Assembly: GCA_038153405.1 (NCBI GenBank)
Contig: JAYOYH010000045.1
Location: 1-39,458, forward strand
Direction of reading: 5' to 3'
DNA length: 39,458 nucleotides
Origin: Gemmatimonadota bacterium
Lineage (GTDB): Bacteria > Latescibacterota > UBA2968 > UBA8231
Shown here: positions 3,202-16,854 of the stretch, in pieces
Layout of the letters: every line of letters starts with the position of its first letter
Position numbering within the stretch: the stretch's first letter is position 1
Translations under genes and position numbers: made by a program
The notes under the pieces: generated by a model
Databases searched by the model: none
Told to the model about the DNA's origin: nothing
The model's input: the letters and a program-made list of their open reading frames with translations, nothing else

Positions 3202-4563
3202 TTACGGCCGGTGCGTTCCGGCGCGCGAGGTTGGCAGCGGCAGGATCCATTCGGCCCGGGCTAGGCCGTAGTCCACTTGGGCCAGGTCGCGGGTGGGATC
3301 GATCAGTGGGAAATAGGGGCGGCCGTTGAGCGAGCATTCGACGCGCGCGTATACGGCTATCGCCGCGTCGCTTGGTCGCCGCTCGACATTGGAGAGAAAG
3401 CGCGCGAACTGGGCGATCATGTGGGGGCGTCCACCCATTTTTTCGGATTGGCGCTCGGTCAGGTACTTGCGCGGATGAACGCGCCAGCGCTGACCGGTAG
3501 TCGATTCTTCCAAAAGGAAAGACGATCGACAGGTCTTGTCGCGCAGCTTCATATGCCAGGCGAAGCGATGGCCTTCCTCGCTCCAGCTAGGATTGCCCGG
3601 GTAGAGCCAGTGGCGCAGCGGCAGCACCACCTGCAGCGCGAGGTAGGCCATGAGCAAGGCGGTGACGACCGAGCGGGAGCGCGGCGCAGTCATCTCCCGC
3701 GCCGGCTGGTCGAGCGGCACCGGCCAACGCAGCAGCGCGCGCGGCCAAGAGGGCGATAAGAACAGCAGGCTCAGGGCCGCGCCCAAATAGGGGAAAGAGC
3801 CAATGGAAAAGATCTGGCTGTTGATGAGGTGAAATGCCAGCAAAGCCGCTAGCATACCAGCGCGCGTTCGCTGCCACAGCAGCAGCGGAACGGCGCATAG
3901 GTCGATCAGCAGTCCAGCGTAGCTGAAGGCGTAGGCCGCCGCCGCGCTGTCGAGCAGCCCGGAAAGAGGGGGCAGGTAGAGGCTGTCCGGCAGCCACTGC
4001 CGCATGGGCCAGCCGCGCAGCCAGTCGGCGTTGAGCTTGGCGATGGCGCCGTAGAAATAGACTAGCCCGATCTGGGCGCGCAAGATCCACAGCGACCAGC
4101 TGGGAACGCACGGCGAGCGGATGCTCGGGAAGAGGCGCGCGTCGAGCGAGAACGCGCGGTGAGCCGGAATCCATACGAGCAGGATGCTGACGAGACATAT
4201 CAGGTAGTAGTGGTTTTGATATTGCGCTTGGTCGAGCAGAAATACGTAGGTGTAGCCGAGCGCGAAGAGCGCTGCGGCAAGCCGGTATAACAGACCAACG
4301 GCAATGCAGATGGCCAGCGCGCCCAGCGCGTAAAAATGCAGGTATATCCACGGCTGCGGCCACGGCTCGATCCAGGAAAAGCCGAGGTATTTAAAGTAAA
4401 AAACGGGTTCTACAAAGTGGAAGTCGACTTTGCCGTGGCTCAGAAAGCCATACATATCCCAGGCCATAACAAGGCCAAAGACGATGCGAAAAGAGACCAG
4501 CGAGGCCGCGTCGATAGGGGCAAAGAGGCGCTGCTGTAGCGAGCGGATCGAATGCGTCGGCAT
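3202..4563 (-). CDS. HTTM-domain / vitamin K-dependent gamma-carboxylase-like membrane protein
   Basis: Motifs YQNHYYL, YFYGAIAKLNADWL, WSEEGHRFAWHMKL, SLNGRP..LIDP; multiple TM helices. Confidence 0.88.
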   Translation of the reverse strand: MPTHSIRSLQQRLFAPIDAASLVSFRIVFGLVMAWDMYGFLSHGKVDFHFVEPVFYFKYLGFSWIEPWPQPWIYLHFYALGALAICIAVGLLYRLAAALFALGYTYVFLLDQAQYQNHYYLICLVSILLVWIPAHRAFSLDARLFPSIRSPCVPSWSLWILRAQIGLVYFYGAIAKLNADWLRGWPMRQWLPDSLYLPPLSGLLDSAAAAYAFSYAGLLIDLCAVPLLLWQRTRAGMLAALLAFHLINSQIFSIGSFPYLGAALSLLFLSPSWPRALLRWPVPLDQPAREMTAPRSRSVVTALLMAYLALQVVLPLRHWLYPGNPSWSEEGHRFAWHMKLRDKTCRSSFLLEESTTGQRWRVHPRKYLTERQSEKMGGRPHMIAQFARFLSNVERRPSDAAIAVYARVECSLNGRPYFPLIDPTRDLAQVDYGLARAEWILPLPTSRAGTHRP

Positions 4564-11971: not shown

Positions 11972-12151
11972 TGCATCCCTTTCTCGACGTTCCCGTCCTG
12001 TTCAGTAGAGAGGAGAAGGTAATATATCGGGTGGTAGAGCGTCTCTCAAATCACCTGCGTATCGAAGTAATATGATGGATTGGGTTGACCGCGCATGGAC
12101 TGCGCGTACATTTCCTTGCGTATGTTGGATCTTTTGCGCGAAAGGTATGTT

Positions 12152-12721
12152 ATGATCACAGTAACGGAAGCAGCGGAAAAGAAAATTGCCGAGCTTGTCG
12201 CTAAAAACGACAGGCCGATCAAGGGACTGCGCATTGGAGCGCGTTCGGAGTCGCCGCTCAAAGTGGACTACAAACTGGCCTTTGTATCCGAGGAACAAGT
12301 CGAAGCGTCCGACGAAAGAGTATCCTTTGACGGTTTTGACGTCTTTATGGATCCCGACAGCATCGACCTGCTCGAAGATGCAACCGTCGACTACGTCGAC
12401 GGGCTAATGGGCAGCGGTTTTAAAATCGAACGCCCGCGCAAACTGCCCAAGCATTTAGAAGGCGACCTAGCCCAGCGCGTGCACGAGGTAATTGAAAAGC
12501 AGATTAATCCGGGCGTTGCTGCCCACGGCGGTACAGTAAATCTGGTCGATGTCAAGAATAGCACCGTCTACGTGCAGTTGGGTGGTGGCTGCCAGGGCTG
12601 TGGCATGGCCAGCGTGACGCTTCGCGATGGCGTGGTGCGCATGATTAAGGAAGGCGTGCCAGAGGTAGAAGAGGTTGTCGATGTGACCGATCACGACTCG
12701 GGAGAAAATCCCTACTACTAA
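12152..12721 (+). CDS. nfuA: Fe-S biogenesis protein NfuA-like (degenerate A-type carrier + NifU-C)
   Basis: ITVTEAA start, INPGVAAHGG, GGGCQGCGMA, DVTDH..GENPYY; start at ATG 12152 after AAAGGT. Confidence 0.88.
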   Translation: MITVTEAAEKKIAELVAKNDRPIKGLRIGARSESPLKVDYKLAFVSEEQVEASDERVSFDGFDVFMDPDSIDLLEDATVDYVDGLMGSGFKIERPRKLPKHLEGDLAQRVHEVIEKQINPGVAAHGGTVNLVDVKNSTVYVQLGGGCQGCGMASVTLRDGVVRMIKEGVPEVEEVVDVTDHDSGENPYY

Positions 12722-12741
12722 AGGGCGATTAACAGAGACGG

Positions 12742-12778
12742 AACGGCGCGAGCGCGATCGAGCGTTTCGCGCCGTTTG
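12742..12778 (+). terminator. Hairpin terminator after nfuA
   Basis: AACGGCGCGAGCGC / GCGTTTCGCGCCGTT inverted repeat with a short T run. Confidence 0.65.
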
Positions 12779-12783
12779 CGTTG

Positions 12784-12812
12784 TTGACATCTGGCAGGCG
12801 ATTGCATAACGT
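12784..12812 (+). promoter_or_regulatory. sigma70-type promoter
   Basis: TTGACA (12784-12789), 17 bp spacer, TAACGT (12807-12812); predicted start near 12819. Confidence 0.75.
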
Positions 12813-12832
12813 ACTCTCACAGGCGACAAGAG

Positions 12833-12947
12833 GGCGCCACCAAGTCCGCGGGAAAGGCCGAGCCTACCTCACCTCGCAGCATGCACATAGCAACTTCTTT
12901 CTACCAGTCGAGGGCGGACAGCTGGTGCCATAACGGAAAGAGGTTGT
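12833..12947 (+). promoter_or_regulatory. Structured 5' leader RNA with anti-RBS pseudoknot (riboswitch-like)
   Basis: Helices 12833-39/12923-29, 12844-49/12914-19, 12855-58/12862-65, 12872-76/12909-13; loop 12890-12901 is complementary to the RBS region 12936-12947. Confidence 0.7.
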
Positions 12948-12950
12948 ACG

Positions 12951-13916
12951 ATGGCTGAGACCCTACCTCCAAGGCCCAACCTTGAGCAGCTCAAGAAACA
13001 GGCCAAAGACCTCCAGAAAGAGTACAAAAGCGGCCGCGTAGAAGTCTATGCGCGCATTCGCCTGCACCTGCCGCGCCTGGCGAAAAAGTCCGACGAAGAA
13101 ATGCCCAAAGAGCGCTTTGTGCTGCAGGATGCACAGCACGTCATCGCGCGCCTGTACGGTTTTTCCAATTGGGACATGCTGTGTTCAGCCGTAAAAACGC
13201 CCTTTGCCGCGCTGGTGGATTTTACCGACCGCGAAATCCAGGTTCTACTGCGCCAGGTCGATCAGCGGGACCTCGTCATCGCGCTAAGCGGAGCTGGCAA
13301 AGCGGTGTGCGATAAGATTCTCGGCAATATGTCCGAACGCGTGCGGCAATTCATAAAAGATGAGATAAGCTTTTTGGGACCACTGCGCGACGAGAAGGTT
13401 GACGAGATACAGTATCGCATCGTCAAGCAGTCCGTCCAGCTAGGTGAAAAGGGGCTGGTGGTGTGGCCGCCCAAGCCCTCGAATAGGCGTACGGCCAAGC
13501 AGAAAGAGGCCGACAAGCCCAGCGGTGTCGAGCGCGAAGAGGACGAGGCGCTGCTGCGCCTGGCGCGGAAAACGCTGGGCGAGCTGAGCTACGACGAACT
13601 CCATCAGCTCTTTGTTGGCATGGCCGAAAGGGCGAGAAAGCGGGGGATCTTATCGCTGGAGAGCGTGGGCAACGCAGCGGTCGACCCCTTCATAAAGATG
13701 GCCATTCATCTCGTCGTAGACGGCACCGAACCGGGGTTGATTATGGATATCTTGGAGACGTGGACCAAGTCGCTGATGCACGAGCACGAGCGAAGATATC
13801 AAGATAGGCTACATGAGAACGGAGTGAGATACAGCAAAGTGATTGAAGCGATGATGGCGATGCAGGCTGGCGACAATCCGCGCGTTGTCGAACACAAATT
13901 GTCCGTTATTTATTGA
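12951..13916 (+). CDS. Soluble fusion: N-terminal LPxRPNL helical domain + FliG C-terminal domain + MotA cytoplasmic domain
   Basis: aa 85-172 resemble FliG_C (DREIQVLLRQVD..DLVIAL, NMSER..KDEISFLGPLR); aa 213-321 resemble MotA (ARKRGILSLE, DPFIK..LVVDGTEP..ILE, IEAMMAMQAGDNPRVVEHKL); no TM segment. Confidence 0.82.
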   Translation: MAETLPPRPNLEQLKKQAKDLQKEYKSGRVEVYARIRLHLPRLAKKSDEEMPKERFVLQDAQHVIARLYGFSNWDMLCSAVKTPFAALVDFTDREIQVLLRQVDQRDLVIALSGAGKAVCDKILGNMSERVRQFIKDEISFLGPLRDEKVDEIQYRIVKQSVQLGEKGLVVWPPKPSNRRTAKQKEADKPSGVEREEDEALLRLARKTLGELSYDELHQLFVGMAERARKRGILSLESVGNAAVDPFIKMAIHLVVDGTEPGLIMDILETWTKSLMHEHERRYQDRLHENGVRYSKVIEAMMAMQAGDNPRVVEHKLSVIY

Positions 13917-13950
13917 TGGCGTAAATGGCCTACGCGCAAAGCCCAACGGC

Positions 13951-14349
13951 CTACTCTATATCTGGCGGGCTTTGCCGTATGGCATCGATATGCTTTTCTA
14001 GCCGATCCCGTAAATTGCTGAGGGTATCGGTTTTCAACAGGTAGTCATTTGCACCTTGTGCAATGGCTTGGCGGACTATTATCGTATTTGCTTCGCCAGT
14101 AAGGACGACGATCTTGGTTTGCTTAAACTGCGGATTGGCGCGCAGTATCTGCAGTACTTCGATGCCGTCTTTTTTAGGCATGTACAGGTCCAATACGATA
14201 AGTTCGGGTTTAAAGCTCTCACAGTGAGAAATGGTCGTTTCCCCATCTTCCGCTTCCGCTATTTCGCAGTCGAGCTTTTCGAGTATGGCTATGATCTTGC
14301 GTCGACTGATTGTTGCGTCCTCGGCAACAAGCACGCGAGGTTTACTCAT
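13951..14349 (-). CDS. Single-domain response regulator (CheY-like)
   Basis: VLVAED, VLDLYMP, LTG, conserved K; GGAG RBS. Confidence 0.9.
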   Translation of the reverse strand: MSKPRVLVAEDATISRRKIIAILEKLDCEIAEAEDGETTISHCESFKPELIVLDLYMPKKDGIEVLQILRANPQFKQTKIVVLTGEANTIIVRQAIAQGANDYLLKTDTLSNLRDRLEKHIDAIRQSPPDIE

Positions 14350-14529
14350 TGAGCTGCTCCAAGTTGTTATAGAACTGCGCGAGTGCGTTTCGCACGCGCT
14401 TACGCGGTTACCAAGATCGTTGATTTAGCTATTGTATTGTTAATTAATTTCTGCATCGTGCAGGAATTTTATATAGAACGTATCGGCCAGTCAAGGTTTG
14501 TAAACCATTGCCTTTATGTAGGTGAATCA

Positions 14530-16854
14530 ATGCCACGTTCTGCCATCGTCGCATTCCATAAGTCGCAGTTAAACTTCACGCGGGTATACACGGTGTTTGG
14601 GATTGGATTTGGGTTCAGTTTTCCCATTATTGCAACCCTGCTAGACGTCTACATATCCGACTATCCAATGAGTATTCACGGTGCTATAGCAGCACAGCGA
14701 GCTCAACCGCTGCATTGGATTATCAACACAGCGCCCATTTTTCTCGGTTTGGCCTTTGGGATTGCCGGTCGGCGACACCAGCAAATGGCACATACGATAA
14801 ATCAGCTGGAAGAGCGAGAACAAGCACTTCGCAATGCCTCCGTTGCTCTATCTAGAAATAATGCGGTGCTGGTTAAATCAAAGCAGTTGGCGGAAAAAGC
14901 CAATATTGCCAAAAGTGAATTTTTGGCCAATATGAGTCACGAGATTCGCACCCCGATGAACGGTATCATCGGCATGAACGAACTGCTGAAGAACACGCAG
15001 AAGACGCCGCTGCAAACCGAATATGTCAATGCGATCGGTGCGTCGGCCGATGATCTACTCGAGATAATAAATAGCATTCTCGATGTATCGAAGATAGAAG
15101 CGGGCAGGTTCACTCTTGAACATATCGATTTTTCGGTTGGTTCTATCGTGCAGAGCGCGATCCGTCCCATTTCCGTTCGCGCTCACAACAAGGGCTTGGA
15201 ATTGCTCTGCGAAATAGATGGCGATGTACCTCAAATGCTCAAGGGTGACCCCGTGCGCCTCCGCCAATTGTTGATCAACTTGTTGGGCAATGCAATAAAG
15301 TTCACCGAACAGGGCGAAGTGCGTGTGCGCATAGGCGTTGAATCTTCTGACGATGAGGGCATCGTTCTACGCGCTAGTGTGAGCGATACGGGCATCGGCA
15401 TGGCCAAGCAGCAGCAGCAACACATATTCGATGCTTTTTCACAGGCAGATGCATCTACCACCCGGCGTTTTGGTGGCACGGGATTGGGCTTGACCATTTG
15501 CAGCTATATCGTGGATATGATGGACGGTTCCATCTGGGTTGATAGCGAAGAGGGCAAGGGGAGCACATTTCACTTTACGGCGCGTTTTGCAGCGTCAACG
15601 GAGGCGGAAGTCGAGAGTCTGCCATCGCTGGAGTCTTTGCACGGTCTGCGTGTCTTGGTGTTGGACGACAACCTGACAAACCGCAAAATTCTCGATGGTC
15701 TGTTAAGGCGTTGGCATATGGTACCGGTATTGGTTGAATCGGCTATAGAAGGGTTGGATGCCATCGCCAGAGCGAAGGAGCAAGGCAAACCGTTTCAGCT
15801 GATTCTATTAGACGGTATGATGCCCGAAATGAATGGGTTGGACTTTCTGCTGGAACTGCCCGCTTCGCGCGACGTAGTTGCCTCCACGGTTATGATGCTG
15901 TCTTCGGTTGATGATGTAGAATTAGTCCAGCGCGTGCGTGACCGAGGAGTGCGAGTGTACCTGCGCAAGCCCGTTTTACACGCAGATCTACTGGATGCCA
16001 TTTTTTCGATCATAGGGTCTGATTCCTCGTTGGTAGATCCGCTGGCGGCGGCTAGCATTGAGCACTTCGATCTATTGGGTAAACGCATCTTGCTGGTAGA
16101 GGATAACGCAATCAACCAAAAAGTTGCGCTGGGTTTACTCGCAGAGACGAACTGCACCTGCCAAACCGCTGCCAACGGAGAGGAAGCAGTCCAGCGCGTG
16201 CGGGAAGAACCTTTTGACTTGGTTCTCATGGACTTGCAAATGCCGGTGATGGGAGGAATAGAAGCGACGCAGCGCATTCGCGCGTTGGAAGCATCGCAGG
16301 AAAAACATGTGCCCATCGTCGGCTTGACCGCCAATGCGATGCAAGGCACGCGCGAGCAGTGTCTGGCTGCGGGTATGGACGAATACTTGGCCAAGCCGAT
16401 TAAGCGTGCGTCTTTGCATAGACTATTGGGGCAGTTTTTCGATGCCGAATCCCCGGTGTTAGAAGAGGTCAGCGCACCGGCAGATACCGACGCGCAGTCG
16501 CTGGCAATCCTCGACGAAGAGACCTTGGACGAGCTCCATACGTTGGACGCACCGGGCGGCTTTTCGCTGCGCGAGGTCATGGAGCTATTTATCGACGAGT
16601 CGGACCATTTTGTCGAAGAGATGCGCCAGCTGTTGGCCGATAAACAGGGACCCGAATTGCAGCGCTCGGCACACACCTTTAAAGCCAACGGTCGCGATCT
16701 GGGGGCTCAGCGTTTGGCCGCCTTGTGTCAGCAGATTGAAGACCGGGGTCGCGAAGGTCAGTTCGATGGAATCGACGCCCTGATTGACGAAGCCGAACGC
16801 GAGGCCGCGCTCGTCTGCGATGCACTCAAACAGCACAAATACATGGACTCGTGA
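14530..16854 (+). CDS. Hybrid sensor histidine kinase (2 TM, HisKA, HATPase, REC, REC, Hpt)
   Basis: [37 protein letters not shown], two REC domains, RSAHTFK Hpt; start at ATG 14530 is uncertain. Confidence 0.92.

Follow-up and report, generated by a model that had tools for sequence, protein, structure and literature searches.

How the stators of the bacterial flagellum grip FliG for torque generation has been resolved only recently. Several cytoplasmic proteins, i.e., YcgR (PilZ), MotI/DgrA and EpsE, are thought to slow or disengage the motor at this rotor-stator interface; they have unrelated folds (PilZ, glycosyltransferase) and bind the interface from outside. Here, we describe a protein that is, in contrast, built of the interface domains itself, as it carries a FliG C-terminal domain (FliG_C) and the cytoplasmic domain of MotA (MotA-cyt) in one soluble chain. 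Its gene is located at positions 12951..13916 (+) of contig JAYOYH010000045.1 (positions 1-39,458 of the forward strand, assembly GCA_038153405.1) of a Gemmatimonadota bacterium with the GTDB lineage Bacteria; Latescibacterota; UBA2968; UBA8231. The source genome is 93% complete and has a guanine-cytosine (GC) content of 0.595. In the following, the window denotes the whole stretch of 39,458 nt that was analysed, and the gene product is referred to as the fusion.

A comparable arrangement has been described as an engineered protein. A MotA-FliGc fusion with a flexible linker was used to solve the MotAB-FliGc complex (PMC11302681, PDB 8ucs), in which FliG_C is located between two adjacent MotA cytoplasmic domains. 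Like the fusion, the engineered protein tethers FliG_C and MotA in one chain. It is man-made, however, comprises the full membrane MotA together with MotB and has FliG_C at the C-terminus, whereas the fusion is natural and soluble and carries FliG_C before MotA-cyt. A literature search, with most subscription journals outside its coverage, returned no description of a natural FliG-MotA fusion but only the engineered MotA-FliG construct; in PMC8789113, PF01706 was used only for retrieving FliG. A further soluble protein of this field is FlgX of Campylobacter jejuni, which, according to PMC6686046, is cytoplasmic and MotA-associated and stabilises stator units, likely via direct MotA contact, and thus affects stator availability. 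FlgX has 165 amino acids (aa), and no FliG or MotA domain is mentioned in the available part of its description.

The open reading frame (ORF) has an ATG start and encodes 321 aa plus stop; all of its parts named below lie on the plus strand. The gene product is a soluble three-domain protein, which consists of an N-terminal helical domain (aa 1-84, 12951..13202), the FliG torque domain (aa 85-175, 13203..13475) and the cytoplasmic domain of MotA minus the hairpin of the transmembrane (TM) helices TM3-TM4 (aa 200-321, 13548..13913). A linker (aa 176-199, 13476..13547) lies between the latter two. It opens with a conserved W-P-P motif (aa 171-173), whose P173 is invariant in 36 sequences, and is partly disordered, as the predicted local distance difference test (pLDDT) drops below 50 at aa 179-187.

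The FliG part is recognised by Pfam (PF01706) at aa 85-169 with an E-value of 1.4e-20 and 74 bits (cut-off 23.3), and a sequence search of the PDB with the fusion returned FliG 1lkv (E 6.5e-16). In the VIA structure comparison, aa 77-173 of the predicted model are superimposed on FliG_C 3usy_A over 94 residues with a Z-score of 16.5 and a root mean square deviation (rmsd) of 1.0 Å. The domain (aa 84-171) is 54-56% identical to three FliG paralogues of its own genome. It shares with FliG (PDB 1lkv, 1qc7, 3usy, 8umd) both the fold of FliG_C and the motif of the torque helix, here aa 129-142 (13335..13376; a helix in the model), with the equivalents of R281, D288 and D289. In contrast to FliG, the fusion lacks the preceding domains: FliG_N (PF14842) is absent in a Pfam scan to E 10, while the FliGs of the same genome do match PF14842, and FliG_M (PF14841) is absent in the Pfam scan as well. 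The MFXF hinge is replaced, the equivalent of R297 is not conserved in the family, and the tail is replaced by the W-P-P linker leading into the MotA domain. The fusion stays under the FliG equivalog cut-off (TIGR00207, 68.6 versus 226.7 bits).

The MotA part reproduces the cytoplasmic domain that MotA, PomA and MotP (PDB 6ysf, 8ucs, 8brd, 6ykm) form from the TM2-TM3 loop and the C-terminal tail. The NCBIfam models of MotP/MotA/PomA match aa 210-290 with E-values of 5e-15 to 1e-10, at scores far under the full-length cut-offs, and the PDB search returned MotA 8ucs_C and 6ysf_E (E ~1e-10). When the C-terminal 131 aa were compared with MotA 8ucs_C, the match (E 2.9e-12) consisted of two pieces, query residues 10-89 on MotA 61-142 and 105-127 on MotA 222-244. 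MotA residues 143-221 are skipped, from which it follows that TM3-TM4 are left out and that one cytoplasmic segment continues directly into the other. An alignment to the genome's own MotA places a short connector (aa 282-295, 13794..13835) in the position of the TM3-TM4 hairpin; the fusion is identical to this MotA in 48% over 79 aa and in 37% over 67 aa, and it contains the VDGTEP motif of MotA. The VIA comparison superimposes aa 210-321 on residues 73-248 of MotA 8ucs_C (Z 14.8, rmsd 1.5 Å, 112 residues) and the MotA part on PomA 8brd_D (Z 15.6, rmsd 1.5 Å), with 110-112 residues across both structures. Foldseek is in agreement with the VIA fold assignments. A membrane helix was not found in the fusion, the highest Kyte-Doolittle mean over 19 residues being 1.2. 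All four TM helices of MotA, in the TM1-TM2 and TM3-TM4 regions, are thus missing, and since they are missing the fusion has no ion channel.

An earlier note on this DNA, made from its letters and translated ORFs, had read aa 85-172 as FliG-C-like and the C-terminal part as a MotA cytoplasmic domain without TM helices whose two segments are joined directly. Both readings are borne out by the matches above. Judged by the features that define FliG and MotA, the fusion is neither of the two but a new design from known parts.

The N-terminal domain is family-specific. The AlphaFold2 (AF2) model of the fusion, calculated from an alignment of 36 sequences (mean pLDDT 86.6, predicted template modelling score (pTM) 0.71), shows it as four helices (aa 11-27, 30-39, 58-68 and 74-82; pLDDT ~90). 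Pfam gives weak hints only (Glyoxalase_8, E 0.19), and neither a sequence match in the PDB nor a lead in the Atlas was obtained. Kinship to FliG was considered and dropped, as the VIA alignments that stretch FliG over this domain have an unconvincing rmsd of 4-7 Å. Our own hidden Markov model (HMM) of the domain finds it in 100 of 120 homologues. Elsewhere in the source genome it occurs only twice, in one FliG_C protein on contig C59: two adjacent FliG_C frames are located there (G000:C59:2763-3990, L074), one of which comprises the N-domain twice, then FliG_C, and no MotA part. The N-domain therefore also travels with FliG_C alone. Six homologues show the N-domain with MotA-cyt and no FliG_C. 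No PilZ family (Pfam scan to E 10) or other ligand-binding domain (Pfam scan) was found in the fusion.

The charged residues of the torque interface deserve a closer look. Following E. coli numbering, we take R130, D137, E138 and R146 of the fusion to be the equivalents of R281, D288, D289 and R297 of FliG, and R229 and E237 (13635..13661) to be those of R90 and E98 of MotA. Conservation was counted over 120 listed homologues, which contain 142 FliG_C and 174 MotA-cyt instances. R130 is present in 140 and E138 in 138 of the 142 FliG_C instances. Position 137 is acidic in 100 of them and S in 20 out of 22 second FliG_C copies. On the MotA side, R229 is found in 161 of the 174 instances, including 52 of the 56 second MotA-cyt copies, whereas E237 is kept in 89 out of 118 single or first copies and in only 5 out of 56 second copies. 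That second copies keep the R and lose the E fits unequal roles of the two halves of a clamp. In the family, both faces have thus kept their main charged residues. This is in good agreement with the earlier note, which had listed all six residues with the spacings known from the motor and had concluded that both faces of the interface are kept; all six are indeed present at these spacings and five are conserved. R146, however, is not (7 of 142). It lies just past the torque helix, is P in relatives with 85% identity, and is a peculiarity of the window sequence rather than a family feature. The position aligned to a lysine of T. maritima FliG, the equivalent of E. coli K264, is S in the fusion.

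The fusion belongs to a large family. A word-indexed search returned 300 homologues within the length window, and an exhaustive search among representatives at 50% identity gave 4816 matches at E <= 0.001 (ordinary FliG and MotA included), 626 at E <= 1e-10 and 79 at E <= 1e-30. The homologues derive from metagenome-assembled genomes labelled Latescibacterota, Gemmatimonadota or Handelsmanbacteria, and carry names such as 'hypothetical protein', 'FliG C-terminal domain-containing protein' or 'flagellar motor component MotA'. Architectures were assigned to the 120 listed homologues with purpose-built HMMs for the N-domain, FliG_C and MotA-cyt. We observe the order N-FliGC-MotAcyt in 42, N-FliGC-MotAcyt-MotAcyt in 35, N-FliGC-FliGC-MotAcyt-MotAcyt in 20 and FliGC-MotAcyt in 18 cases, with 5 others. 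Pfam and NCBIfam recognise both domains in 15 out of 15 architecture representatives, and 117 of the 120 homologues have no hydrophobic window above 1.6. The family thus has a constant core of FliG_C and MotA-cyt in 1:1, 1:2 or 2:2 stoichiometry, and the window protein is a 1:1 form with N-domain.

Comparison with the 84% identical orthologue in L088 over 321 codons yields a ratio of non-synonymous to synonymous substitution rates (dN/dS) of 0.168, and the gene is under purifying selection. Short contigs identical to parts of the gene occur in Logan assemblies of RNA libraries from two studies, where carry-over of DNA is possible. A scan for promoters and terminators gave no more sites than were found in shuffles.

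The origin of the soluble MotA domain was addressed by a FastTree tree of 343 MotA-cyt instances over 111 match columns. The tree is unrooted, with local support values, and its membrane MotAs were picked up through their similarity to the query. One split (support 0.998) separates 288 soluble instances from a group of 48 out of 49 membrane MotAs and 6 soluble instances; 82 of 91 second MotA-cyt copies group together (support 0.64). As read from this unrooted tree with query-like membrane MotAs, soluble MotA-cyt appears to have arisen essentially once, and long ago. Since the soluble clade stands apart from the membrane MotAs, the domain of the window would be no recent cut-out of the genome's own MotA, despite near-identical key motifs.

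A metagenome scan with MotA-type motifs covered 80 loci, whose frames with MotA-cyt or FliG_C include 70 ordinary membrane MotAs, 6 soluble fusions and 2 membrane MotA::FliG_C proteins. A search of genome contigs with the single fusion protein returned one marginal locus, L027, with 28 residues at a contig end. The membrane MotA::FliG_C proteins are natural fusions of ~430-500 aa, consisting of a MotA with TM windows, a linker of ~110 aa and a C-terminal FliG_C, and hence have the topology of the engineered cryo-EM construct. Examples are L095:2673-3965 (+) and L119:552-1928 (+) as well as P0169, P0179, P0195, P0196, P0199, P0202 and others. Among representative clusters with the order MotA-then-FliG_C, 16 out of 17 have 2-5 hydrophobic windows. 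L095 has no MotB gene next to it, whereas FliN and a FliG paralogue are found close to L119.

The flagellar gene set of the source genome is complete and located outside the window. The genome contains FlhA, two FliM, one flagellar-type MotA, 9 flagellin-N matches and 8 FliG_C matches, including four full-length FliG paralogues with N, M and C domains (G000 C5:43566-44675, C29:42098-43147, C43:30023-31048 and C69:9140-10213). This agrees with the suggestion of the earlier note that a motor is encoded elsewhere. The four FliG paralogues are orphans among metabolic genes and do not lie beside FliF or other flagellar genes; up to ~7 FliG and several FliM paralogues are found per genome in relatives. 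A further protein of 520 aa with a central FliG_C (G000:C3:16754-18331, L075:6755-8314) has a sigma-70-type factor and a stand-alone FGE-sulfatase gene as its neighbours, an arrangement which echoes the FGE-sulfatase::FliG frame of locus L067 described below.

To relate the fusion to flagella, 168 genomes of the phylum were surveyed for FlhA, FliM and flagellin, and a fusion was counted when the match spans both domains. These genomes are related to each other and are no independent samples, so that the counts are descriptive. The fusion occurs in 14 of the 168 genomes, and FlhA in 63. Thirteen of the 14 have flagellar genes, 11 of them FlhA and two more FliM and flagellin. In genus g12, FlhA is present in 4 out of 31 genomes, and both fusion-bearing genomes are among these four. 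The question raised in the earlier note, whether genomes with such fusions encode flagella, is thus answered in the affirmative for 13 genomes, while one, G032, shows no marker. As the fusion is missing from most FlhA-bearing genomes, it is dispensable for flagellar function. On these descriptive counts from related genomes, it accompanies flagella in this lineage as an accessory and is not needed for them.

Two structure predictions bear on the way in which the two domains might interact. For P0172, a natural 1:2 member of 357 aa, the model (alignment of 50 sequences) has a pLDDT of 94.5, a pTM of 0.88 (versus 0.71 for the window protein) and no disordered linker; FliG_C and MotA are recognised in its three parts. 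P0172 is predicted to fold as one rigid body, the pTM being an indirect sign of docking. This prediction favours two faces docked on each other over faces that are free for the motor. A complex prediction of FliG_C (aa 83-176) against a single MotA-cyt (aa 195-321) gave a score of 0.00, was run without controls and speaks neither for nor against binding. One MotA domain may not suffice if a clamp of two domains is needed.

We tentatively propose, at somewhat under an even chance, that the fusion is a soluble copy of the torque interface which docks on itself and serves as an accessory motor modulator in this flagellated lineage. FliG_C and MotA-cyt would make the contact known from the motor, with FliG_C gripped between two MotA-cyt domains. 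The position of FliG_C between two MotA domains in the solved complex fits the natural 1:2 and 2:2 architectures. In these forms the clamp could close within one chain, while the 1:1 form would need a dimer, equal to the 2:2 architecture, or a ring oligomer. In this way, the torque interface would be reproduced as a closed, soluble unit. It might modulate the flagellar motor, or the extra sets of FliG and FliM paralogues. Once opened, it could present stators with a FliG_C decoy or cover rotor FliG with a MotA-like cap. The protein may thus act as a brake, a clutch or a parking factor, in a role of the kind attributed to YcgR, MotI/DgrA and EpsE, and the N-domain would probably serve for its control or targeting. 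For a tie to the flagellum we also count that the fusion of L067 lies inside a FliM-FliG-FliN cluster. Such a protein could represent a new kind of motor control, which works by self-mimicry, unlike the outside binders YcgR and EpsE. A soluble protein with both faces, conserved in many lineages, would further provide a tractable, membrane-free system for studying the contact of stator and FliG, and an example of flagellar parts that are reused outside the flagellum.

Several observations weigh against the modulator function. G032, whose genome is 75% complete, carries a 1:2 fusion, yet none of FlhA, FliM, flagellin, FliG_N and MotA was found in it. Of the 63 FlhA-bearing genomes, 52 have no fusion; in the genus of the window, this applies to six out of eight. 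The neighbourhood survey comprised 108 ORFs at 14 genome loci (L062 and L064 were left out of the context count), and the context is non-flagellar, mostly metabolic, at 13 of the 14 annotated loci and in the window. The response regulator and hybrid kinase next to the fusion gene are not kept in the 58% identical orthologue L060 and have an atypical GC content. Finally, the 1:1 form cannot build a two-MotA clamp alone.

Part of this evidence favours the chief rival, a self-contained module that is no longer flagellar, in which the contact of the two faces is a structural core or a conformational switch for another pathway, e.g., signalling or scaffolding. The closed rigid body predicted for P0172 points in this direction, as the two faces would occupy each other. 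The non-flagellar surroundings, the fusion of G032 without any of the five markers, and the old separate clade of soluble MotA-cyt (288 soluble instances against 48 of 49 membrane MotAs and 6 soluble ones, support 0.998) are consistent with it, too. On the other hand, the fusion follows flagellated genomes in the phylum, even within genera, the torque residues are conserved, and its motifs are close to those of the genome's own FliG and MotA. One locus lies within a FliM-FliG-FliN cluster, and the genome of G032 is only 75% complete. We consider this rival possible but rather doubtful.

A combination of both functions is conceivable as well, although we regard it with some scepticism. The torque contact may have been packaged as a free-standing soluble device, which forms an old clade of more than 100 clusters in 1:1, 1:2 and 2:2 stoichiometry and exists alongside membrane stators with a tethered FliG_C. 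It could be a switchable latch that parks or caps stators and rotors in flagellated cells and has been carried into non-flagellated bacteria for another purpose. If so, it would represent a natural, soluble and crystallisable model of the rotor-stator interface as well as a new class of motor regulator.

The fusion might also be a chaperone of stators or rotors, with FliG_C holding the MotA face of free stators or MotA-cyt covering the FliG paralogues prior to assembly. FlgX (PMC6686046) sets a precedent for a soluble stator stabiliser, and both faces are kept in the fusion. Moreover, four orphan full-length FliG proteins face a single flagellar-type MotA in the source genome, which leaves FliG_C domains unpaired. 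Still, we judge this unlikely: no sequence relation to FlgX was seen, although no comparison aimed at it was made, most flagellated relatives have no fusion, and the closed rigid prediction for the 1:2 form speaks against free binding faces.

At L067:3209-8216 (-), which equals G039:C8, a run of five genes on the same strand is headed by a core fusion of 221 aa. It is followed by FliM, a 714-aa single frame of FGE-sulfatase and FliG N/M/C, FliN, and a MotA-like protein of 155 aa (mini-MotA), which has four hydrophobic helices but hardly any cytoplasmic loop. Three SpoIIE phosphatases, whose sensor domains are of the Y_Y_Y or Reg_prop type, flank the run. The idea of a split stator, with the mini-MotA as one part, was rejected as a general explanation, since the mini-MotA occurs in 4 of the 168 genomes and not in the source genome. 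In a different reading, the fusion would be built into an alternative rotor or switch as one of its structural subunits, along with the additional FliG, FliM and FliN paralogues of these genomes. The gene order of L067, the membrane MotA::FliG_C of L119 near FliN and a FliG paralogue, and the many FliG and FliM paralogues per genome are in line with such an assembly. It appears quite unlikely, as a cluster of this kind is present at only one of the 14 annotated loci, the fusion and all four FliG genes of the source genome are orphans in metabolic surroundings, and the mini-MotA shows the narrow distribution just mentioned. The four to seven FliG genes per genome suggest that rotor and switch paralogues have expanded in this little-known phylum, an expansion that is so far unstudied.

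A chance chimera, an assembly artefact or a decaying gene, for which only the odd architecture speaks, is very improbable in view of the dN/dS of 0.168, the 300 homologues, the 79 clusters at E <= 1e-30, the recurrence of this architecture on many independent contigs, the confidently predicted folds and, as a weak point owing to possible DNA carry-over, the identical short contigs from RNA libraries.

The window itself was annotated by Pfam scans of 34 ORFs. No flagellar structural gene was found among them, and the searches for FlhA, FliM, flagellin and MotA place none on the contig. An orphan CheB with receiver and methylesterase domains (1621-2766, +), ~10 kb upstream of the fusion gene, has no other chemotaxis gene in its vicinity. 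The absence of a flagellar operon from the window, as stated in the earlier note, is confirmed. No motB or pomB adjoins the fusion gene. Its neighbours are a NfuA-like gene, a single-domain response regulator (13951..14349, -; Pfam Response_reg, E 6.6e-24; GC 0.48), which is convergent with the fusion gene, and a hybrid histidine kinase with HisKA, HATPase, two receivers and HPt (14383..16854, +; Pfam; GC 0.52). The order PhyH, RraA, NfuA, fusion, response regulator, hybrid kinase recurs in L088. A dip in GC content at positions 12000-16000 of the window (0.55 and 0.50 in 2-kb windows versus ~0.60) is caused mainly by the regulator and the kinase, while the fusion gene has 0.56; both genes may be a later insertion. 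A functional link to the response regulator was not adopted: it is adjacent in the window and L088, directly upstream in L070, two genes off in L060 and absent elsewhere, and its GC content is atypical.

Further genes were noted in passing. The Pfam scan of the window shows an HTTM / vitamin-K-dependent gamma-carboxylase-like gene at 3202-4563 (-). GH113 glycoside-hydrolase genes are located beside a FliG paralogue (L058:14733-15785) and beside a fusion (L065:4740-7028) in different genomes, which may be chance. In L069, a SpoIIE/Y_Y_Y phosphatase adjoins the fusion gene.

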